Shown here piece by piece: positions 11,812-55,402 of a DNA stretch of 56,483 nt; positions within the stretch are counted from its first letter, which is position 1; each line of letters begins with the position of its first letter. The position numbers were made by a program, and so were the translations under genes. Source of the stretch: a virus (Duplodnaviria; Caudoviricetes); the IMG/VR virus record IMGVR_UViG_3300031227_000050, positions 1-56,483 of that record; one strand, given 5' to 3'. A model generated the notes under the pieces. The model made no database searches and was not told the origin of the DNA. It saw only the letters and a program-made list of their open reading frames with translations.

Positions 11812-14800
11812 TTATACTAAAATACAGGCCCCTCCAGCACAGGCAATTTCTTGCTCTGGCTGAGTTTCGTCTTGTTCTTCAATCATGGTTGTATAATCTA
11901 CAGGTTTAATACTATCTACTAGGTCGCAATATAACTTCCAATTGTATACATCTTTCATACAATATGTTAGTCTTTTTAGGTCACCATCAAAATACTTAAT
12001 GGCAAACTTGTTCATTTTCTCCACCATAGCACACTGTTTGGCAATTTTCATCCAAAAGGCAGAGTCTCCACCTCCATTAGTACTAATCTTAGTATTGAGC
12101 TTATCATATAGTGTAATATCACATGCTTTCCATAGGTTATCACAGGCATCTAACGCTATTTCTATCAAACCGGAGGTCCATAAGGCAGCATCTCCATATT
12201 CTCTTACAATCTCTCTTGCTGTATACACCGCAGTAAATGGAGCTTGGGCATAATCTTTGTCGCCACTCTGAGGCAATAAGGCAACACCACAAAAATACCG
12301 TTTGTTTTTGTAGATAAAATCAGCTACTTCGACCCATTCAGTTGGGGTAACAGTGATAGTATTTGATACATTATGACTGAGCCACGATTGTGTACATAGT
12401 TTTTTGTTTTTACCGGAATTAACCCAGTTACCCTGTGTGCTTTTAACAATGTCTAGTAATGCCAAGGCGGGCATTTGGTTCTTAGTTTTGGCACCATCAG
12501 GTACTTCAATAGGAAAGATGATAATATCATCAGTATCGTTAGCCGACCATACTGAACGAGTGCAGGCTTGTTGGTTGGTAGCTCTAAAATGTTGGTAAGG
12601 ATTCTCAGCTCTATTAGCTTGTAAAATACGTAAGTATCTTTTTGAATGGTGGGGGTGTAAGCTGGATGATGTACCTAATAGACACGATGATGTGCCCTCT
12701 GGTTTCATACAAGTAGTACGGGCAGCTTGATTAACTCCAATTATCTTAGCAAATGCTTTATTAGTATCAACTATGGTTTTAGCAACCGTACGTTGATTAG
12801 TAGGATTAAGTACTATGTCAAAATTTTCCATAGCTCCGGTCATAGATACGCCGAGTAGAGCTTCCCGCTGGAATATTGCTTGGGACCAGGATGTGAGGTA
12901 CTCAAGCCTGGTAAATCCTGCTTGGAGAGTACCGATAATAGCTGCCGCTCTACCTCTCTCATTAAAGTCTGCGATATCCTTGATAGTTGCGCAATTGATG
13001 GTCGAAAGGTTACATCCCTGCCATCCAGATTCAAGACCCATTTCGGTTGGTAGCGCTTTATATCCCATTCCATCATATGTCTCCATATACTTGTCATATT
13101 TCGCTTGGTCAACAATGTAATATGCCCACATGCCAATTTCAGCACATGGATTTATCAACATTTCTAAATCGTCGGTCCAAATGAAACCGGGCTCACCATG
13201 TTCTTTAACATGTTCTAATATAGCTAAGAATTCTTCCTTGGTTGTCTTGTTACGTAATAACATAACAGAATTATTTGAGCGTGCTCGCTGCCCATTTTCT
13301 TCTTTCCAGTTGCCCGTTTTGGCAGTCATCATCTCATGGTCGTCGGCCGAAAACAAACATATTGTGGATGAATTATGAACTAATATTCCATTACATAAAA
13401 AACAGCTTTCTTGTTCTACCTCGATATCATACGTGTCAATAGCATTATTTTGCTCAATGCTTAAAACACGAATAGGAACTATGTGTTGATTATGATAATA
13501 TTTATCGGCTACCCAACCAGTCATTCTTTTGTTATTTGTAGACCAAGAATGTCTCAGCCCTTTTGGATACGGCTTAGAAAACCATTTAGCCGGAAAACAA
13601 TTTGATGTTTTTTTATCGTGGGTTATTCTAGGTATTTTAGTTGCAAATCTATATTTAGATACAAACTCGATATACTGTTGTAGGTCTAGTTTGTTTAGAA
13701 TACTCACATGGTATTGGTCTTTCCAATTTGGTTTACCTTGATTACATTTCCATGTAGATACAGCTTTTAATTGTATCCTACTGATAATACCACAGCTTAA
13801 TAATAAAGATTGTAATTGTTTAGCAAAGTCTTCATAAATAGTACATGTTACACAGAAGGGTTTAACTTTTACCGAACCATCTGCATCTACTACACCTTGA
13901 ATATATGCCATTCTTATGTTTACAGAAGCCTTTTTAACAAAATCTGGTATATTAATAGGTGTATTAGGTTGTTTGATATGTGTATGAAAGTAGGTAGCTA
14001 ATTGCTTACTTTTTACTCTAACCCTATAATAATGGTCTTCGTGTGGTCTGTGTTGAACGGTTACATTTACACCAAATCTTGTCAATTGTTGGGCTACATC
14101 AACTGCTTGTTGTTTGTGTTCCTCAGCAACAGCTACAGACAAAGCCCCACTGTTATGGGTTAACTTAACATAGCCATCTCCATGAAATATTCCTAAAAAC
14201 CATGCCATTTTTTCATCTAATGGTGGTATAACAATATTTTTACATGTAGTTGAACGGGCTGGTTTTATATACTTAAAACTTGGTAGTCGTGTTGTGTTAT
14301 TGTGGTTATCAGCACGACGAATACTATATAGGTAATCGTCATCTGTTAAGTTTTTAGCATATTTCCAAGTAAATTGACCATCATAACTGTTTAACACAGC
14401 TACTCTATGATTTGGGGTACATTTTATAGTTCCATTTTGATGTTTTATTGTAACACAATTTTGTTTACCTTGACTAAAAGTGTTAATTACCCTTTTCCAT
14501 CCATTAGGTGTTGATACATAATCTCCAATGGTTACATCTTGTATATCTTTATATCCTTGTTCTTTGATTAAAACCTTTTCATCTTGTGCTATACATCTCC
14601 TAACACCACCACTTAAAACTGCATCGGATATATGCATAACAATATCATAGCAGTCTATAGGGCGTAATCTTTTTCTACCTTCTTGGTAACGACAACGTCT
14701 TAATAGAGCATCAATACGTATAATAGCACTTCTTAACCCGTTTGGCCCCGGCGCTTTGCCAACACCTGAACTTAGAAAAGAACCAGCAGGTCTAATTTGA

Positions 14801-15345
14801 GAATAATCAAAAACAACTTCGCCACATTTAGCATATTTTTCGTAAGCAGGGTCTATAACTACATCTAGGTGATTACTTAATAACACCCCAATGGTGTCAG
14901 CCCAACCCTCAATGGTATCGGGAACAACAAATGTTTCCTGATGAGAGAGAATTTCGCGCCTAAAACCAGGGAGTCTATCTACGTGTTGTTTTTGTACTGA
15001 AAATCCAGTCCCACAACCACATAATAATAACCAAAAACATTCTTGGAAAAATCGTGGTCTATCACAATAGGAACTCACACAATTATATATTCTAGCGTTC
15101 TTTTTTAGTGCTGGTGTGCCCCCAAATTGTAATGCTCTCTGTGACCCTAACACTTTCTTCTTGAGCATCATGTCGTATGCCCAGTTTATCTCTTCATCTA
15201 TACCTTTATCGTTGTAAAATTCCAACATCATATCGCGCACTCGATATACTGCTTCTTTCCAAGTCTCTCTGCGCTTCTCTTTGGCAATCCATCTGGCATA
15301 TTTAGATACAAGAGTATAATTCATTAATTCTGGTAAAGCTGACAC
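11812..15345 (-). CDS. nrdJ: class II (AdoCbl-dependent, monomeric RTPR-type) ribonucleotide reductase with intein
   Basis: RRETW, IYNC, GCGTGFSV, GGVRR|S, GEPG, NPCAEI, TCMKPEGT, C-terminal ACAGGAC. Confidence 0.93.
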   Translation of the reverse strand: MSALPELMNYTLVSKYARWIAKEKRRETWKEAVYRVRDMMLEFYNDKGIDEEINWAYDMMLKKKVLGSQRALQFGGTPALKKNARIYNCVSSYCDRPRFFQECFWLLLCGCGTGFSVQKQHVDRLPGFRREILSHQETFVVPDTIEGWADTIGVLLSNHLDVVIDPAYEKYAKCGEVVFDYSQIRPAGSFLSSGVGKAPGPNGLRSAIIRIDALLRRCRYQEGRKRLRPIDCYDIVMHISDAVLSGGVRRCIAQDEKVLIKEQGYKDIQDVTIGDYVSTPNGWKRVINTFSQGKQNCVTIKHQNGTIKCTPNHRVAVLNSYDGQFTWKYAKNLTDDDYLYSIRRADNHNNTTRLPSFKYIKPARSTTCKNIVIPPLDEKMAWFLGIFHGDGYVKLTHNSGALSVAVAEEHKQQAVDVAQQLTRFGVNVTVQHRPHEDHYYRVRVKSKQLATYFHTHIKQPNTPINIPDFVKKASVNIRMAYIQGVVDADGSVKVKPFCVTCTIYEDFAKQLQSLLLSCGIISRIQLKAVSTWKCNQGKPNWKDQYHVSILNKLDLQQYIEFVSKYRFATKIPRITHDKKTSNCFPAKWFSKPYPKGLRHSWSTNNKRMTGWVADKYYHNQHIVPIRVLSIEQNNAIDTYDIEVEQESCFLCNGILVHNSSTICLFSADDHEMMTAKTGNWKEENGQRARSNNSVMLLRNKTTKEEFLAILEHVKEHGEPGFIWTDDLEMLINPCAEIGMWAYYIVDQAKYDKYMETYDGMGYKALPTEMGLESGWQGCNLSTINCATIKDIADFNERGRAAAIIGTLQAGFTRLEYLTSWSQAIFQREALLGVSMTGAMENFDIVLNPTNQRTVAKTIVDTNKAFAKIIGVNQAARTTCMKPEGTSSCLLGTSSSLHPHHSKRYLRILQANRAENPYQHFRATNQQACTRSVWSANDTDDIIIFPIEVPDGAKTKNQMPALALLDIVKSTQGNWVNSGKNKKLCTQSWLSHNVSNTITVTPTEWVEVADFIYKNKRYFCGVALLPQSGDKDYAQAPFTAVYTAREIVREYGDAALWTSGLIEIALDACDNLWKACDITLYDKLNTKISTNGGGDSAFWMKIAKQCAMVEKMNKFAIKYFDGDLKRLTYCMKDVYNWKLYCDLVDSIKPVDYTTMIEEQDETQPEQEIACAGGACILV
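13372..14595 (-). mobile_element. 408-aa intein with LAGLIDADG homing endonuclease in nrdJ
   Basis: GGVRR|CIAQD...CTPNHR...FLGIFHGDG...YIQGVVDADG...TYDIEV..ILVHN|SS. Confidence 0.95.
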
Positions 15346-16506: not shown

Positions 16507-16588
16507 TGGGTGAGGGGGGATTCGAACCCCCACGCCTTTCGGCACGACATTCTAAGTGTCGCATGTATACCAGTTTCATCACACACCC
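16507..16588 (-). tRNA. tRNA-Leu(TAG)
   Basis: CGACA-CT-TAG-AA-TGTCG, long variable arm, GGTTCGAATCC. Confidence 0.93.
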
Positions 16589-26586: not shown

Positions 26587-27708
26587 CTAATTGTTTGTCG
26601 TCTTGCCTATTTTACCACAATTATCACAAAAGTCAAGTCTTTTTCTGGCAATTAGAATTTCTATAAGAACTCCTGCTGAACGAGTCCAAGTAAATCTATC
26701 AGCAGTAGCTATACCACTTAAGTTATTTGGTCTTTCCTGATAGCAGTATCTCATATATTCAATCAACTGGTCTTCTTCATCCATATCAATTTCGGCCCAT
26801 TCTCCTTGACCTGTAAAGAATATACCGTCGAAAGCAGTTTCCATATTAGGTGTTTCAATAAGAAAAGAGTTAACACCATCACAAAACTCTGTGTGTGCGC
26901 TATTGTTGGTAGCTATGACTGGCTTGCCACACGCCATAGATTCCAAAAGTTCTAGGTTCCACCCCTCAGCGTGACTAGGAAATACCCCACAGTCACACTG
27001 GTTGATAATTTTGGCTACATCTGTGTGGGTCGCTACTGGATTTAACAAAGTAACCTTAGAATATAACTTAGCATTAGTATACATCTTAGTCCAGTAATTA
27101 AGCTGATGTTCTCTAAGGAATGGGTTGTGTGGCATCATTACTAAATGAACATCGTCAGTAGTTTCAAACGCTTTGTCGAACGCTCGAATTAGAACGTCGT
27201 GACCCTTGCGCTTTTCCCATTTACCTATATTAAAGAAGGTATATGGTTGGTTATCTTTGTGCCTACCGTCTTTATTTGGTTTAAAAGTATTGGTATCTAC
27301 ACCACATGGTACTTTATATACTATTGAGTTAGGTACTTGGTTACATAAAATGTTTTTAGCCCATTCAGATGATGCTATAAGATAATGGGGAACACTTAGA
27401 TGCGCTAGTTCTCTAGCGTTAAATCTGTCTAGTTCAAAAAACGGCCAAGCATAATATGGTCCATTGCCTATTCTCTTAGCAAGGTCAAATTGGTGCCATA
27501 TATTAATACATGTGGCTTTTGGGTCAACCATATTTTGTTGGTATACTAGAGCCTCAAGCAACCTTTTATCTGGACCTTCTGGAATACTACCATATGGCCA
27601 AAGAGTTATGTCTATACCACCTGTTTTAAAAAGTTCTAGCGTTAGATTTTTGCCAACTACTCCATATCCTGTGTTAGATAGGCTAGTCATAAGATTAATT
27701 GGTATCAT
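26587..27708 (-). CDS. GT4 glycosyltransferase
   Basis: GKWEKRKG, PSHAEGWNLELLESMACGKPVI. Confidence 0.88.
   Translation of the reverse strand: MIPINLMTSLSNTGYGVVGKNLTLELFKTGGIDITLWPYGSIPEGPDKRLLEALVYQQNMVDPKATCINIWHQFDLAKRIGNGPYYAWPFFELDRFNARELAHLSVPHYLIASSEWAKNILCNQVPNSIVYKVPCGVDTNTFKPNKDGRHKDNQPYTFFNIGKWEKRKGHDVLIRAFDKAFETTDDVHLVMMPHNPFLREHQLNYWTKMYTNAKLYSKVTLLNPVATHTDVAKIINQCDCGVFPSHAEGWNLELLESMACGKPVIATNNSAHTEFCDGVNSFLIETPNMETAFDGIFFTGQGEWAEIDMDEEDQLIEYMRYCYQERPNNLSGIATADRFTWTRSAGVLIEILIARKRLDFCDNCGKIGKTTNN
26609..26636 (-). promoter_or_regulatory. sigma70-like promoter
   Basis: TTGACT-N16-TAAAAT. Confidence 0.6.
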
Positions 27709-28066
27709 GTAAATATTCCTGTATACTTTGCATAGCTTCTCTGGCTGTTACCCAGAGCTTAGCTAAGTTTTTATCGTCTATTTTTTTTGAATCAATATAT
27801 GTAAAGATACAGTACCCAAGCCCTTCGTACATAATATATTCATCAATTTGTTCTACAGTTAACTTGCCTTTTGGTAATGGCTCAGGTATTTCAATTGGTG
27901 GCATACCTTTAATAGCATCTGTTACCCAGGTTCCCATACCTATGATATCGGTATCAAGATTGGTTTTAGTTTTTTTCTTTGATTTAAAATCGTGACCACA
28001 ATCTGGACACTTCTTAGTGCGTGGTCCACAACCTTTTTTACACTTTGGACAAACCTTTAGCGGCAT
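27695..28066 (-). CDS. zinc-ribbon protein
   Basis: KVCPKC...GPRTKKCPDCGHDF. Confidence 0.7.
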   Translation of the reverse strand: MPLKVCPKCKKGCGPRTKKCPDCGHDFKSKKKTKTNLDTDIIGMGTWVTDAIKGMPPIEIPEPLPKGKLTVEQIDEYIMYEGLGYCIFTYIDSKKIDDKNLAKLWVTAREAMQSIQEYLHDTN

Positions 28067-28089
28067 TTAAGTCATCCTTAAATAAAAAT

Positions 28090-28328
28090 AGTATCTCTAT
28101 AAGCGGGATTCTGTTATCAACTGTCATTTATCTCAGGCTTACGCCTGGGTTATTCACTTGCCTCTACCCGAGCATCATCGGTCTGTTCATCACCTAGCTC
28201 TGTTTGAGTTGCACCCTCGGTAGTGCGAGCGAGTTGTTCTAATTTTCTAGATAACAACTCTCCTACCTTAAACAGTAGTGTCCCGACTTTCCTCTACCGC
28301 AATGGCGGCAGCGACAGTCTGAGATACC
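28090..28328 (-). ncRNA. rnpB: miniature bacterial A-type RNase P RNA
   Basis: GAGGAAAGTCGGGA, GGTGCAA, L15 GGGTA, AGATAAATGACAG and ACAGAATCCCGCTTA landmarks; P1-P4, P15/16 and P18 (GTAA loop) all pair. Confidence 0.88.
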
Positions 28329-28549
28329 AAATCAAATATTTCCACCTTCTTAGCAATGCGGCGAAGGTCATCCTGTACATCAGTATTACCATCATCACCA
28401 CTCCATCTTCCTAGAACAAATTGCTCATAATCTAATGCTGCTGCCAACACTCTTAATTTTCTTGCATCAGATAATTTTGTACTTGCTTGTCGTTGTTCCT
28501 CTGTTGGGAAACCCGTTAAATAAGGATTAACGTCGTCTTTTTTTTCCAT
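28268..28549 (-). CDS. hypothetical protein
   Basis: ORF whose last ~20 codons overlap the RNase P RNA 5' end. Confidence 0.45.
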   Translation of the reverse strand: MEKKDDVNPYLTGFPTEEQRQASTKLSDARKLRVLAAALDYEQFVLGRWSGDDGNTDVQDDLRRIAKKVEIFDLVSQTVAAAIAVEESRDTTV

Positions 28550-29174
28550 CTGATTTACCTTTTCTAAATGAGGTTACTAGGTCAAAACCTTTTGCTTCAA
28601 TCATTACTTTATCTGGTACATGTGGAACAACTTCTCGTTGTCCACCCAATACACCAAAGAGATACATTTCAATTTCTTGGAATGTATGATACACATCAAA
28701 CAGTCTATAGAATTTAATATCAGCTAAGACAGGATTGATATATATATTGCGAAATGTACGAATAAAATATGGAGTATGGAATTCTGTAAAAATGTCCTTA
28801 CAAATTTTGTCATGTGTTACTATACTTTCAAATGATGCTTTAAGTCTTTTAAAACTTTGAGCCATACTATCTCGTCTATGTCGTTTACAATTTGTAGTAA
28901 TAGCTTCCCAAGCAAAATCAAGGTCATAGAAATAGCCATTCGGCTCATCGCCTCCGTCCAATCGGATTACTGGATAAGCATGTCCACAAAAACCAACTAC
29001 TATAATATCATATTGTCTTTTTGCCCAAGTAGATACATAGCGATTACTTCCATACCATAACATATAATTTACACGACGCTCAATAGTTTCTTTTTTTCGA
29101 TGCCAAAAATTAACATTGTCTGATGGGTCCATCATACAGTCGTAGTAGTCATGATATTTACTTACAATTCTCAT
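28527..29174 (-). CDS. hypothetical phage protein
   Basis: MRIVSKYHDYYD...FQEIEMYL...KGFDLVTSFRK. Confidence 0.7.
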   Translation of the reverse strand: MRIVSKYHDYYDCMMDPSDNVNFWHRKKETIERRVNYMLWYGSNRYVSTWAKRQYDIIVVGFCGHAYPVIRLDGGDEPNGYFYDLDFAWEAITTNCKRHRRDSMAQSFKRLKASFESIVTHDKICKDIFTEFHTPYFIRTFRNIYINPVLADIKFYRLFDVYHTFQEIEMYLFGVLGGQREVVPHVPDKVMIEAKGFDLVTSFRKGKSDGKKRRR

Positions 29175-31202: not shown

Positions 31203-32398
31203 TACTTGCCGTCCGTCCCGCCCTTTCGGGCCAAATAATCTGCGCTTACACTCTTCAAGATAACCCGTCCCAATATAGGAACAGTACGGTCTATAACTGG
31301 TTTGATTACTACTCCTTCGCGCCCTTTAAACTTACTCTTGGGATTTTCACATACCTCAGTAAGCCCATCGGTAAGCTCCCTAACTATCTCAGGAGAGTAG
31401 GTACCTATATATAGCTCTGGTACATGAGGAATACTATATTGATGACAAAGTTCTCTTACGTTTTGCCACATGATAAACTTACCACCAATGGTGATGTCAA
31501 ATACAGAAAAAGCTTTTGGCCCATCGTACTGCATATCCTGAATATCTTCTCCGTAAATCTCCCCATAGATAACTATAGGCTTCTGGTATAAGGTAAATAA
31601 GTCAGCCAACATCTTTTTGACTGGTGGATACTTCATGGGTGACCAATACAGACACTCATTACCATTAGTATCCTCTTGCTTACGGCGAGTATTATGAGAG
31701 CCCGCCATGAAAGTTGGTACCATCTCTCCATTCTCATCTGCATCTAGAGCAATGCCCAATCTACAGTTTGTATTGTGTACTATTATTCCTGACGCTACAA
31801 AATTATGGGTATCTTTAATTTGTAGGTCATATCTTTTATAAGACTGAACTAATTTTTTCTTCTTAATAAGTTTCATTTTTGTAACTTCTTTTTGTAAAAG
31901 GTCTTTAATATATCCTCTATAAATAGGTTTTAAATTATGTTGTTCAATTACTTCTTTGGTTAAATTTAAATGAACCCGTTGACCTACCTTTTGCTTGTTT
32001 TGCAATGTCAGATAACCTAATTTTCTATCTTTAACTATATGTAAAAGAATATAATCAGGCTCGGTTATTATATGCATTTCATATATTGGTTCTAGAACAT
32101 CAAAATTATATCTTGCAAATATCAATGGTTGTTTTGGATAATGAGGATAATTTGGACTAATAGTAGAACTATCTTTATCTATCATAGTGGTACTTTTAAC
32201 CTCAGCTTTCAATATTTTATTTGCTATAGATATATATACATCTCCTCCTTTACCATCTTTTTTTCTATGTCCATTAAATGCTAAAGCCACCAAACCTTCT
32301 GATATTTTTTCTGGCAAATTTGGTTTACGCTCATTTATATCAAAACATTTTCTATATGCTATATAAGCATTACACATTTCTCGTATTAATATAGGCAT
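31202..32398 (-). CDS. fusion: Bsp6I-like restriction endonuclease (aa 1-174) + C-intein (35 aa) + RNA ligase C-terminal half (189 aa)
   Basis: RKPNLPEKISE...GD...AEVKST; MKLIKK..RYDLQIKDTHNFVASGIIVHN|T; IYGEIYG, FSVFDI, REGVVIKP, RVILKSVSADYL. Confidence 0.88.
   Translation of the reverse strand: MPILIREMCNAYIAYRKCFDINERKPNLPEKISEGLVALAFNGHRKKDGKGGDVYISIANKILKAEVKSTTMIDKDSSTISPNYPHYPKQPLIFARYNFDVLEPIYEMHIITEPDYILLHIVKDRKLGYLTLQNKQKVGQRVHLNLTKEVIEQHNLKPIYRGYIKDLLQKEVTKMKLIKKKKLVQSYKRYDLQIKDTHNFVASGIIVHNTNCRLGIALDADENGEMVPTFMAGSHNTRRKQEDTNGNECLYWSPMKYPPVKKMLADLFTLYQKPIVIYGEIYGEDIQDMQYDGPKAFSVFDITIGGKFIMWQNVRELCHQYSIPHVPELYIGTYSPEIVRELTDGLTEVCENPKSKFKGREGVVIKPVIDRTVPILGRVILKSVSADYLARKGGTDGK
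31772..31876 (-). mobile_element. split intein C-half (IntC)
   Basis: block F/G YDLQI..THNF..SGIIVHN followed by Thr nucleophile; own Met at 31876. Confidence 0.9.
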
Positions 32399-34115: not shown

Positions 34116-34415
34116 TTATACACTAGATTCTCCCAAAACGATATGATTTTCTGTTAAATCTCGGGCTTTTATCCAGCCATCGGTAGTCAATACCGGATGG
34201 TCTTCGGTACAAACCAATGTCTGCCCATTATCAAACTCAAGTTCAAACCAATCTAATTGGTCGGTTTCATCCTGAACTAACACTCCCTCAACATCTGAGT
34301 GTGTAAATAACCCCTTGTCTACATCATATGTTTTAACTTTTTCTCCAACCACAATATCTTTGATGGGTTTTTGTGTACCATCAGACATAGTTACTAAAGA
34401 GTCTTCACGAAGACA
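34116..34415 (-). mobile_element. split intein N-half (IntN)
   Basis: CLREDSLVTMSDG..KPIKDI.VGEKV...LVCTEDHPVLT..GWIKARDL, then stop. Confidence 0.92.
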
Positions 34416-34946
34416 CCCATGAATCTTCTCAGTTATTACTACTTCTTCATCCTCTAACCACACATCAGGATAATTACCCCAATGTTCTATAGAAGTATAC
34501 TTAGGAAACTGAGGATTGTCTTTCATCACATCACCCTGGGTAGACTTAACGGGTGGTTCCCATTTGGTGATACCTAATGCATCTATTACATCAGCACTAT
34601 CTATTTTAGTATTACCATTATTCGAAGTATATTCTAAGAACGATTTCATCGTCATTATTGTTCCATATGATACTTCACCTCTCAGCCTAGCTGCTTTTAC
34701 TCTCCGAGCATTTGTGTTAAATGACTTAGGTAACTCTGCACAATACTTAGTAATGTTCAGGTACTCATGTAATAGTGCAGGAAGAATAGCATCTGGTGGG
34801 ATGAACACAACTAAGTCTCCGGGACTCAATAGGTCTTTCTGTACTATAACAGACCATCCTTTGACCGTAGCTATTTCTAGCCGGTCTGCATTGGGGTGGG
34901 GCTGAATATCCTTAACGGATGTTATTTCAACGATTAGCTTTGACAT
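34116..34946 (-). CDS. RNA ligase (DRB0094 family) N-terminal half (177 aa) + N-intein (99 aa)
   Basis: PHPNADRLEIA, GDLVVFIPPDA, RLRGEVSYG, LGITKWEPP, FPKYT, ITEKIHG|CL. Confidence 0.92.
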   Translation of the reverse strand: MSKLIVEITSVKDIQPHPNADRLEIATVKGWSVIVQKDLLSPGDLVVFIPPDAILPALLHEYLNITKYCAELPKSFNTNARRVKAARLRGEVSYGTIMTMKSFLEYTSNNGNTKIDSADVIDALGITKWEPPVKSTQGDVMKDNPQFPKYTSIEHWGNYPDVWLEDEEVVITEKIHGCLREDSLVTMSDGTQKPIKDIVVGEKVKTYDVDKGLFTHSDVEGVLVQDETDQLDWFELEFDNGQTLVCTEDHPVLTTDGWIKARDLTENHIVLGESSV

Positions 34947-36937: not shown

Positions 36938-36950
36938 GTAGTGTTGTAAG

Positions 36951-37022
36951 AGCCCTATGAAGGAATCGAGCCTTCTTTCATACCTTACCAAGGTATTGTA
37001 ATAACCATTATACGAATAGGGC
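36951..37022 (-). tRNA. tRNA-Thr(GGT)
   Basis: ATACC-TT-GGT-AA-GGTAT; T-loop CTCGATT. Confidence 0.85.
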
Positions 37023-37192: not shown

Positions 37193-37198
37193 AAACAG

Positions 37199-37269
37199 CA
37201 GAGGTAGAAGGAGTTGAGCCTTCTCTTATTGATTCAAAGTCAACCGTGCAACCCTTACACTATACCTCT
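37199..37269 (-). tRNA. tRNA-Gln(TTG)
   Basis: GTTGA-CT-TTG-AA-TCAAT; acceptor AGAGGTA/TACCTCT. Confidence 0.85.
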
Positions 37270-37777: not shown

Positions 37778-37950
37778 TGTTAGGTACTTTATGTAAGGAC
37801 ATAGTATTATTTGTTATGTCCTAACATTAGTATCCTAATTTATCTTACTGCATAAAACGCACATATACTCAAGATATACAGAGCAAAGAAAAGAGTTGCA
37901 ATTACAATATCTAAGTCTTTGCTATTTATATACATGATTGTTCCTTTAAG

Positions 37951-38021
37951 CTACCCCTTTAGGATTCGGACCTAAACTAAAAGATTCAGAGTCTTTTGTG
38001 CTACCGTTACACTAAAGGGTA
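37951..38021 (-). tRNA. tRNA-Gln(CTG)
   Basis: AAAGA-CT-CTG-AA-TCTTT. Confidence 0.85.
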
Positions 38022-42660: not shown

Positions 42661-43710
42661 TTAACCCTCCGGTTTGAGTAACTTCCATATCATCTTGGCA
42701 TAGTCATGCTCATCCATCATAGCAAACACAATATGTCTATAACGATAGTCTTTAATAAGATTGGCTACATACTTACGAGTCCAACTTGGGTCTATAGTAA
42801 CCTCATTGAGTTTATTCCACACTTCGGTCTCGATAACACGATATTTCTTTCTAAGTCCACTCTGAACACTAAGTATCCATTCAAAGTATTCATCGGGTAC
42901 ATTCTTAGGGTCTATTTCATAACTGTCACGCTCCCACTCCCAGAGTTTCTTTTCAGTTATGCTAGTCATAATATAATGAAGCCGCTTGTATTCCTCATAC
43001 TTGAACTTCAATCGGAAACCGTCCTCAAAGATAAGAACATAACCCTCGGCGTTGTCTCTATCGGGAGCCGCCTCTAATTCCTCAATAGTATTAATGTGAT
43101 ACAGCTTAGCAAACTTCATATATTTATTCATCAAAGACCACTCATCCCAATCATCTAAACCAGTATCATTATTCAGAACAGCTAAAAGAATTAATGCACG
43201 CTCATTTTTATAATTTACCACAATTCTATTTTCTGGGTAAATTATTTCAACCATATAGGTACAATCTATTGCAAAGGTTAACCAGTTATATTTTTCTTGC
43301 AATATTTTATTGGCTTCAATAGCCTGGTCTGATTCAAATGAACCCCTAGTGGCAATTTCCCACTTAGTTAGCAAAGGATTGTAGAAAAGTATCCCCAACG
43401 AACCATCTATCTTTTCCATGGTGATGAAGCGTTCATTAAAAATGTCTTTGAACTTACGACCATACAGGTGATGAACCTTATTTCTTATGGAAGTTAGTTG
43501 GTCAATAGTGAAGAACTTCTTAAGTGGTCTTGCTATGATGTTCCACTCGGCATCAACTATGAGCCCACGACACACAATAGTAGCTTCGTTCCACTCAAAA
43601 TCAAACTGGGTTTGTGGAGTGTAGTTTAATATCCACAAGTCACAGGTTGGATGCTTGCGGCGAGAAACATAACCTTTCTCAATCATCTTTTTAATTAATG
43701 GAATGTTCAT
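42661..43710 (-). CDS. T4 Rnl1-like RNA ligase
   Basis: ILNYT, CRGLI, RPLKKFF, EKIDGSLG, ATRGSF, EIIYPENRIVV, EGYV, RLKFKYEEY. Confidence 0.92.
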   Translation of the reverse strand: MNIPLIKKMIEKGYVSRRKHPTCDLWILNYTPQTQFDFEWNEATIVCRGLIVDAEWNIIARPLKKFFTIDQLTSIRNKVHHLYGRKFKDIFNERFITMEKIDGSLGILFYNPLLTKWEIATRGSFESDQAIEANKILQEKYNWLTFAIDCTYMVEIIYPENRIVVNYKNERALILLAVLNNDTGLDDWDEWSLMNKYMKFAKLYHINTIEELEAAPDRDNAEGYVLIFEDGFRLKFKYEEYKRLHYIMTSITEKKLWEWERDSYEIDPKNVPDEYFEWILSVQSGLRKKYRVIETEVWNKLNEVTIDPSWTRKYVANLIKDYRYRHIVFAMMDEHDYAKMIWKLLKPEG

Positions 43711-55212: not shown

Positions 55213-55329
55213 GTAATTTGGCATTAAAAGTGCCTAGTCTATATATTACCTAGTTTTGCAAAACATATGTCAGCAGACCCAACAGAGGTAACCCCGTGTA
55301 CTTAGGGGACATAATGACGCTTGACATAG

Positions 55330-55402
55330 TGGTGCGCCAGGGAGTCGGACCCTGTCATTTTGCTCATCAGGCAAAATTGCACTAAACCGGCGCACACGCA
55401 CC
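55330..55402 (-). tRNA. tRNA-Ile(GAT)
   Basis: TTTGC-CT-GAT-GA-GCAAA; T-loop TCCGACT. Confidence 0.75.

Follow-up and report, generated by a model that had tools for sequence, protein, structure and literature searches.

The window analysed here is a 56,483-b record in the IMG/VR virus collection (IMGVR_UViG_3300031227_000050), taken over its whole length. On its minus strand, at positions 28089 to 28329, lies a gene for an RNA of about 241 nt that resembles the RNA of bacterial ribonuclease P (RNase P) stripped of its specificity domain (S-domain). RNase P RNA is one of two universal ribozymes and is treated as a cellular and organellar gene. This one lies among phage genes: matches to PHROG families identify a ribonucleotide reductase, a DnaB-like helicase and primase, a DNA ligase, and a UvsX-like recombinase, together with a deoxynucleoside monophosphate (dNMP) kinase, a thymidylate synthase, three RNA-ligase-like genes and, weakly, a tape-measure protein. 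The same record holds 18 tRNA genes (16506-56441), all on the minus strand. The viral origin of the record and its PHROG matches to a phage replication and nucleotide module support the view that the RNA is phage-borne. A full-text literature search, with subscription journals mostly outside its coverage, turned up no account of an RNase P RNA encoded by a phage or other virus.

A first-pass annotation made from the letters alone had recognized a phage RNase P RNA at this site, and the helix map found every helix and motif that it named on the minus strand where it had been placed. The map adds the P6 pseudoknot, which that annotation had not listed. The parts are given below (P, helix; L, loop; J, joining segment; CR, conserved region), with pairing figures from the family alignment described later.

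28089-28329, minus: the whole mini RNase P RNA, from the P1 5′ strand to the P1 3′ strand, about 241 nt (RF00010 match 28084-28330; mature ends not mapped)
28321-28329, minus: P1 5′ strand (TGGTATCTC), pairing with 28097-28089 over 9 bp
28313-28319, minus: P2 5′ strand, pairing with 28125-28119; 6 of 7 pairs change on both sides
28294-28311, minus: P3 hairpin CTGCCGC-CATT-GCGGTAG; cells 98.8% paired, with covariation in 5 of 7 pairs
28282-28294, minus: CR-I (GAGGAAAGTCGGG), including the P4 5′ strand with its bulged U; equal to the Rfam consensus except at one paired position
28289-28282 with 28107-28101, minus: P4, in which GGAAAGTCGGG, with the bulged U, pairs with CCCGCTT; 99% paired in 14 sequences
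28277-28280, minus: P5 5′ strand CACT, pairing with GGTG at 28212-28215; 100% paired, 4 of 4 pairs covary
28275-28270, minus: 5′ strand CTGTTT of the P6 pseudoknot, pairing with GAACAG at 28188-28183 in the P17 loop; 97.6% paired, 4 pairs covary
28219-28267, minus: hairpin in place of the S-domain (P7-P14); helices 6 and 7 are 98.6% and 92.3% paired, with 3 covarying pairs each
28162-28211, minus: J5/15 GCAA and, after it, P15-P16-P17, whose L15 loop is GGGTA at 28165-28169; helices 8 to 10 are 97.6 to 100% paired
28134-28147, minus: P18 hairpin CAGGC-GTAA-GCCTG with a GNRA loop
28125-28133, minus: CR-IV, or J18-2 (AGATAAATG); invariant in 13 of 13 aligned members and equal to the Rfam consensus
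28100-28115, minus: CR-V (AACAGAATCCCGCTTA), including the P4 3′ strand, as placed by the Rfam alignment, the family columns, and the pairing counts

The covariance-model search that the first-pass annotation had proposed as a check recovers this RNA. Model RF00010 (RNaseP_bact_a) matches 28084 to 28330 on the minus strand over model positions 1 to 367, with 70.7 bits and an E value of 2.8e-21 in the 901 b searched (27800-28700); this is the single match in the entire record (E = 4.2e-23), and the bacterial class A model is the best member of its clan for the RNA. The next-best Rfam family in the 901-b stretch has an E value of 1.1 or more. The 247-nt stretch has a minimum free energy z-score of −3.94, and 0 of 200 shuffles fold as well.

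The alignment to RF00010 retains P1 to P3, CR-I (GAGGAAAGTC), the P5 3′ strand and the GCAA that comes next, P15-P17 including the GGGTA loop, AGATAAATG, and AACAGAATCCCGCTTA, so that all three conserved regions of the catalytic domain (C-domain), CR-I, CR-IV and CR-V, are intact. The long-range helix P4 with its bulged U is formed from CR-I (GAGGAAAGUC...) and CR-V (ACAGAA..GCUUA), both strands of which align to the model, and CR-IV (J18/2, AGAUAAAUG) and the GCAA of J5/15 align to the RF00010 consensus. P15-P16-P17 with the CCA-binding GGU of L15 is present, as is the P6 pseudoknot, which belongs to type A and not to type B. Because it has P6, P16-P17, P18, and L15 GGU, we assign the RNA to bacterial type A. 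Missing are about 140 model positions (roughly 73 to 213) that make up the S-domain, comprising P7-P14 with CR-II and CR-III, which read the T- and D-loops of tRNA; a 49-nt hairpin stands there instead. The score likewise falls below the RF00010 gathering score of 100 bits. The origin and core of the RNA are those of RNase P, but these two departures lead us to describe it as a viral, bacterial-type, C-domain-only variant. The evidence supports a phage-borne RNase P RNA derived from bacterial type A, and the covariance-model match, together with the family covariation reported below, bears out its first identification as such an RNA without an S-domain.

Since its score lies below the gathering threshold, a default Rfam scan misses this RNA: run at those thresholds, it reports just 14 tRNA matches in the window and no RNase P RNA. 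Across the seven records that we scored, default thresholds miss every RNA of the window's type (59 to 71 bits versus 100), which leaves phage annotations without them. Lui et al. (PMC8172020) describe diverged P RNAs in candidate phyla radiation (CPR) bacteria that were detected only after thresholds were lowered; according to that study, the P RNAs of Mycoplasma fermentans and of CPR bacteria (the latter without P12, P13, P14, and P18) are missed at default covariance-model thresholds, and Rfam models applied to its megaphages reported only tRNAs and a transfer-messenger RNA (tmRNA). Like the window RNA, these are natural bacterial P RNAs that escape default thresholds and lack some S-domain helices; unlike it, they are described there as keeping the S-domain core and serving as the cell's only rnpB.

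Relatives were sought by exact-pattern scans built from the conserved motifs, run twice over IMG/VR and then, as a combined pattern, once each over metagenome contigs and 185,579 species genomes. The scans yielded 35 and 27 loci in IMG/VR, 30 in metagenome contigs, and 8 in species genomes (cited below by L numbers). A window-type RNA occurs in 7 of the 35 loci of the first IMG/VR scan, the other 28 being chance pattern matches, and in none of the 8 exact-pattern matches among the species genomes. The survey of related phages suggested by the first-pass annotation in this way recovered a family of 13 distinct full-length homologues, one 5′-cut member (L047), and one divergent member (L067), all in virus or metagenome contigs. 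The carrier contigs range from 2-kb fragments to 348 kb, and the G+C content of the loci ranges from 0.26 to 0.58.

From 13 distinct sequences of the window architecture, the window RNA among them, we built a covariance model (R1) of 204 positions and 42 pairs that runs from P2 to the P4 3′ strand and leaves out P1 and the P4 and P6 pseudoknots. R1 gives the window RNA, as one of its training sequences, 202 bits (28099-28320), and over 94 sources it returns 23 rows at 172.5 to 203.4 bits, which are the 13 training sequences and their duplicates and are high by construction. The 5′-truncated L047, which is outside the training set, scores 125.9 bits and the insertion-bearing variant L067/L083 scores 80.9 bits; all other kinds of RNase P RNA in the set score 78.5 bits or less. 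When RF00010 was run on the relatives' records, six scored 59.1 to 67.1 bits, each with just one RNase P-like match; the record behind L021 gave no RF00010 candidate, though R1 gives its RNA 188 bits. A blastn search with the window, L027, L056, and L037 RNAs found no match in 50,697 GenBank phage records, but for RNAs so short and diverged blastn is too insensitive for this to speak against their occurrence in isolates. The window's DnaB-like helicase is distant from isolates, at no more than about 27% identity among the 12 best matches listed and below 60% in all 153 records.

Pairing is conserved across the family. In a model-based alignment of 14 sequences (A6), to which the P4 and P6 pseudoknots were added by hand, standard pairs fill 93.6% of cells, compared with 73.2% in shuffled controls and 35 to 42% when the 3′ partners are slid by 1 to 3 columns. 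Changes on both sides are seen in 38 of 55 pairs, and the covariation score of 0.523 (0.156 shuffled) was reached by 0 of 500 shuffles. One position of P4 shows three Watson-Crick pair types (GC, AU, and CG) across the family; P6 pairs as CTGT/ACAG in the window and as CTGC/GCAG in most members; and P1 is re-formed from differing sequence in all 14 members, its start lying 0 to 1 nt past GCTTA in 13 members and 6 nt past it in L067. The GGT of L15 (columns G167, G168, and T169) is invariant, as is the C-A-A of the J5/15 GCAA, whose G is nearly so. The P18 region aligned badly (45 to 57% paired) because relatives carry an extra hairpin there, and nothing is drawn from it. Mean column identity is 65%. 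We take the element to be a genuine phage gene under selection; its product is almost certainly a real structured RNA, maintained by selection and homologous to the C-domain of RNase P.

Conservation extends to the hairpin standing in for the S-domain. The first-pass annotation had seen about two hairpins between the P5 strands; it was right that the S-domain helices are missing, but the interval in fact holds a P6 strand and one composite hairpin (28267-28219). This hairpin consists of two stems split by an internal loop; its outer stem, GGTAG/CTACC, is 5 bp long, and its inner stem-loop varies in length and is longest in the window. The internal loop is asymmetric, with GA on the 5′ side and 6 to 7 nt on the 3′ side. 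The 3′ side ends in A in all 14 members, begins with G in 12 of them (A in L016 and L059), and mostly reads G-Y-Y-Y-G-M-A. P18 is absent from L037 and L047 and is therefore dispensable in the family; since both keep the internal loop, the loop is not merely a receptor for L18. A kink-turn was considered for the internal loop and rejected by eye, as its GA/AG arrangement does not fit, and the loop was matched to no known motif.

Known systems offer partial parallels to this design. Bacterial P RNAs are typically 340 to 420 nt long (PMC4919922). The window RNA shares with bacterial type A rnpB (RF00010) helices P1-P5, the bulged U of P4, P6, P15-P17 with L15 GGU, P18 with its GNRA loop, and CR-I, CR-IV, and CR-V; it differs in its length of about 241 nt, in having one hairpin for P7-P14 and CR-II/III, and in being carried by a phage without rnpA nearby. 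The minimal RNase P RNA of Pyrobaculum and other Thermoproteaceae (type T, or type P), which has a catalytic domain and almost no S-domain, is reported to be active (PMC7191817, PMC4919922). The shared C-domain-only architecture is a resemblance in design only: the type T RNA belongs to archaeal cells and has archaeal proteins as partners, whereas the window RNA is viral, matches the bacterial A model best, and has P18, described as missing from archaeal P RNAs (PMC4919922). An engineered C-domain of Escherichia coli (Mao et al. 2018, PMC5839562; named Eco CP RPR), in which activity is described as depending on a P6-like pairing and P18 as unneeded, likewise has no S-domain, and the phage family always keeps P6 and loses P18 in L037 and L047. 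That RNA is a laboratory construct of lower efficiency; the phage RNA comes from a natural, selected gene and has, in addition, a conserved hairpin and internal loop that the construct lacks.

The relatives tie the RNA to tRNA genes. In L027 it is flanked by tRNA-Thr and tRNA-Asp of its own strand, with tRNA-Asp beginning about 3 nt past P1; in L037 a tRNA-Thr gene stands on either side of it, within a same-strand run of 26 tRNAs; and in L059 a tRNA-Leu ends 38 nt upstream of it. Whole carrier records hold 11, 13, 36, 64, and 47 tRNAs. Because the RNA in such arrays lies close to a tRNA 5′ end, cleavage by RNase P at the tRNA downstream would also produce the 3′ end of the ribozyme itself. The idea that the phage brings its own tRNA 5′-processing ribozyme, put forward in the first-pass annotation, gains support from these relatives inside tRNA arrays and abutting tRNA 5′ ends. 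A small protein family (134 to 190 aa, no Pfam match) also occurs inside or beside the arrays, at L021:1561-1989(+), L027:2091-2663(−), and L037:9891-10295(−).

We propose that the RNA is probably a working phage ribozyme for tRNA 5′ processing, consisting of the C-domain only and probably using the host's RnpA protein. It would be transcribed with neighboring genes, in relatives as part of tRNA arrays, from whose transcript tRNA-end processing would free it. Folded into an RNase P active site, it is likely to cleave the 5′ leaders of pre-tRNAs during infection, above all those of the phage's own many tRNAs. Substrate binding would rely on contacts with the acceptor stem, L15, and the leader, the last made by the protein, and not on measuring from the T- and D-loops. 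In keeping with this, the bacterial C-domain alone is reported to cleave pre-tRNA whether RnpA is present or not, though more slowly and with lower affinity (PMC4919922).

RnpA is considered the most likely cofactor because no phage rnpA was found. The first-pass annotation had seen none in the window and concluded that the phage borrows the host protein; a search with Pfam PF00825 extends the absence to 10 of 10 virus records and finds rnpA in 10 of 14 control genomes, while the borrowing is consistent with this result but unproven. Two of the rnpA-negative records, those of L037 (183,648 bp) and L042 (328,149 bp), are 100% complete with direct terminal repeats. Bacterial RnpA is described as binding the C-domain (PMC4919922), and we consider it about an even prospect that the phage RNA would use the host protein in this way. 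Alternatively, the RNA could be an active ribozyme independent of host RnpA, acting alone or with an unrelated phage protein and giving autonomous tRNA 5′ maturation. The absence of rnpA from the virus records, two of them complete, fits this proposal, as does the conserved internal loop in the hairpin that replaces the S-domain, to which no partner is assigned; bacterial P RNAs and C-domains are also reported to act protein-free in vitro (PMC4919922; PMC5839562). A basic zinc-ribbon-like ORF (open reading frame) of 123 aa begins 22 nt downstream of the RNA in the window. However, it has no Pfam family and no IMG/VR relative by pattern plus tblastn, and no protein family is common to the RNA-adjacent genes across the family, a few loci sharing a RecD-like helicase and Pfam-less proteins. 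Protein-free activity of bacterial P RNA requires unphysiological salt in known cases, which further counts against independence from RnpA, and we regard such independence as unlikely.

A second alternative is that the RNA is a noncatalytic mimic: as a decoy, it would sequester host RnpA or pre-tRNAs and so shut down or reprogram host tRNA maturation. Such a molecule might well keep the protein-binding C-domain (PMC4919922) and lack the domain that gives substrate affinity, as this one does. Yet the active-site elements (the P4 bulged U, CR-I, CR-IV, CR-V, the J5/15 GCAA, and L15 GGU) are invariant or covarying, which speaks against a decoy, since a mere protein sponge would not need them. The phage's own 18 tRNAs also need 5′ processing, and relatives are embedded in tRNA arrays. 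We consider a decoy quite improbable.

It is less probable still that the contigs are cellular DNA, for example from a small-genome symbiont, misfiled as viral and carrying that organism's reduced rnpB. One carrier record is labelled a provirus, several are low in CheckV completeness, and reduced cellular P RNAs do exist in Elusimicrobia bins and in CPR bacteria, as Lui et al. (PMC8172020) describe for the latter. Against this origin stand the phage-type genes of the window (the UvsX-like recombinase, DnaB and primase, dNMP kinase, a T4 Rnl1-like ligase, and the tape-measure-like protein), the concentration on one strand of 46 of the 47 ORFs that are at least 150 aa long, the complete, terminally repeated 183,648-bp record of L037, the absence of this RNA type from the 8 matches in 185,579 species genomes, and the lack of rnpA in the virus records.

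A decaying, functionless fragment of host rnpB acquired by chance, the outcome that the first-pass annotation had named as contrary to its reading, would explain a score under the gathering threshold and the loss of about 40% of the ancestral RNA but is scarcely credible given compensatory covariation in 38 of 55 pairs family-wide, the recurrence of the same deletion boundary and replacement hairpin in contigs of 27 to 58% G+C, invariant core motifs, and homologues too diverged to be recent copies.

Several observations weigh against a working ribozyme of the kind that we propose. The window record is only 39% complete by CheckV estimate. Within it the RNA stands outside any tRNA array, the nearest tRNAs ending at 16588 and beginning at 36950, and it is flanked instead by protein genes, a 230-aa gene matching PHROG_4243 and the 123-aa zinc-ribbon-like ORF. 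Another ORF, of 93 aa, overlaps it, and a scan of the minus strand beside the gene found no convincing promoter-like or terminator-like site. Isolated C-domains are described as binding pre-tRNA more weakly (PMC4919922). The use of host RnpA presupposes a host that has this protein, and a Pfam search for RnpA would miss a nonhomologous phage cofactor. Thirteen of the 14 rows used for covariation also trained R1, which favors the nested helices though not P4 or P6. Finally, CCA is missing from all 18 tRNA genes of the window, and only after its addition could L15 GGU pair with it.

This last point has a possible answer. In all 18 window tRNAs, and in all 13 of L027, none of which encodes CCA, the discriminator is followed by C-T, and in such tRNAs C74-U75 could pair with two G of L15. 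CCA is encoded in 24 of the 26 tRNAs of L037 and in all tRNAs found in L043, L046, and L056. Four of the 18 window tRNAs predicted by ARAGORN (Ser-GCT, Met-CAT, Ser-TGA, and Ile-GAT) are missed by Rfam at its gathering score, and four have T-loops that start with CTC or TCC, not the usual TTC:

36950-37022, minus: tRNA-Thr-GGT, unusual T-loop start
37198-37269, minus: tRNA-Gln-TTG, unusual T-loop start
37950-38021, minus: tRNA-Gln-CTG, unusual T-loop start
55329-55402, minus: tRNA-Ile-GAT, unusual T-loop start

These T-loops fit the speculation, made in the first-pass annotation, that a ribozyme with no T-loop reader may suit noncanonical tRNAs of this kind.

Other IMG/VR contigs carry RNase P-like RNAs that are smaller still. 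The smallest are as follows.

L038:9714-9882, plus: smallest form of RNase P-like RNA
L042:8970-9139, plus: smallest form
L046:7648-7818, minus: smallest form
L054:9778-9949, minus: smallest form
L056:1539-1710, plus: smallest form

These forms span about 132 to 141 nt by R1 match and roughly 150 nt between the P1 ends. P1-P4 are intact and P5 is closed by a 6-nt loop able to pair with the P17 loop as P6, but there is neither an S-domain remnant nor P18, and the next tRNA lies within 0 to 5 nt. They score 65.7 to 78.5 bits against R1, and 73.6 bits against RF00010 in the record of L042, the 328,149-bp complete record with terminal repeats and no rnpA. A tRNA abuts the RNA in all five of these loci and also in L050 and L043. 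Further reduced P RNAs, from phage or metagenome contigs, have other designs: L050:482-681(−) is a P RNA of about 190 nt between tRNA-Arg and tRNA-Glu that reaches 106.8 bits against RF00010, above the cut-off; L043:676-896(−) and L085 are P RNAs of about 220 to 240 nt that retain part of the S-domain; and larger IMG/VR P RNAs with S-domains (about 320 to 415 nt as extracted) occur at L041, L048, L049, L053, and L055. The stable RNAs rnaC and rnaD of the T4 tRNA cluster, tried as shrunken P RNAs, gave no Rfam RNase P match at E values up to 10 and no more than 5.4 bits with R1 with filters off.

Three RNA-ligase-like genes lie on the minus strand of the window, at 31205-32398, 34119-34946, and 42664-43710, of which one is T4 Rnl1-like (phrog_562, E = 1.6e-59). 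These genes, the tRNAs, and the P RNA together suggest a module for tRNA supply and repair. A more ambitious and rather doubtful extension is that large phages carry a graded series of minimal RNase P ribozymes, from about 240 nt down to about 150 nt between the P1 ends, which would be cotranscribed with tRNA arrays and released by the processing that they themselves catalyze; with the phage tRNAs and RNA ligases, these might form a tRNA supply line independent of host RNase P RNA and possibly protein-free. If this were true, such a line would sustain phage translation after host shut-off or a tRNA-directed defense.

The tRNA arrays and tmRNA of large phages share with the window RNA a tRNA-rich large-phage setting and the same logic of bringing host translation parts; they are substrates, whereas the window RNA is predicted to be a processing enzyme. 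A virus-borne RNase P RNA would thus add catalytic RNA to the translation parts that phages carry, and mini P RNAs of this kind may explain how tRNAs mature in phages that carry tRNA genes by the dozen. Such a virus-borne RNA would, moreover, be a natural enzyme of bacterial type that lacks the specificity domain, a design known until now from laboratory constructs and one archaeal lineage only. In keeping P6 and treating P18 as optional, evolution's own experiment with a minimal RNase P agrees with the engineered C-domain. The family and its forms of about 150 nt offer small targets for structure work and ribozyme engineering.

Two ORFs adjoin or overlap the RNA gene in the window.

28268-28549, minus: 93-aa ORF, a doubtful gene whose last 20 codons overlap P1-P4 (the first 60 nt of the RNA), with its TAA stop inside the conserved TTAAGG
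27695-28066, minus: ORF of 123 aa whose N-terminal segment is basic and zinc-ribbon-like (CxxC...CxxC), the ORF that starts downstream of the RNA

The 93-aa ORF has no Pfam family and no homologue at the loci of other members of the RNA family. The flanking 230-aa protein has a counterpart at one locus, at 29% identity (L096). Contigs from four DNA runs covering 27800-28600 show no variant letters within the RNA, save for one 151-nt contig that comes from the conserved P2-P4 part of another organism's RNA. The 22 runs listed as containing the stretch include no RNA run.

Two further groups of reduced P RNAs appeared in the scans. In genome and metagenome contigs (L057, L081, and L087-L094), Elusimicrobia-labelled bins carry a short type A P RNA of about 241 to 254 nt in which the core motifs of the S-domain are retained and P18 is missing. 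In 5 of 5 bins checked it is the sole RF00010 match, at 126 to 141 bits and thus above the cut-off, and we therefore regard it as a cellular reduced rnpB. Six metagenome loci of 0.32 to 0.35 G+C (L062, L064, L071, L075, L077, and L084) match the pattern of P4 and CR-IV/V and keep an S-domain-like GGGAAAGTG; this AT-rich group, perhaps of organelle or symbiont origin, seems to lack P15-P17, and only L064 reaches an R1 E value of 0.01 or less (26 bits).

Elsewhere in the window, the 1177-aa ribonucleotide reductase ORF (11815-15345, minus) matches the reductase family only at its two ends. Residues of about 380 to 664 give weak helicase and HNH-endonuclease matches, which suggests an inserted, perhaps intein-like, element.

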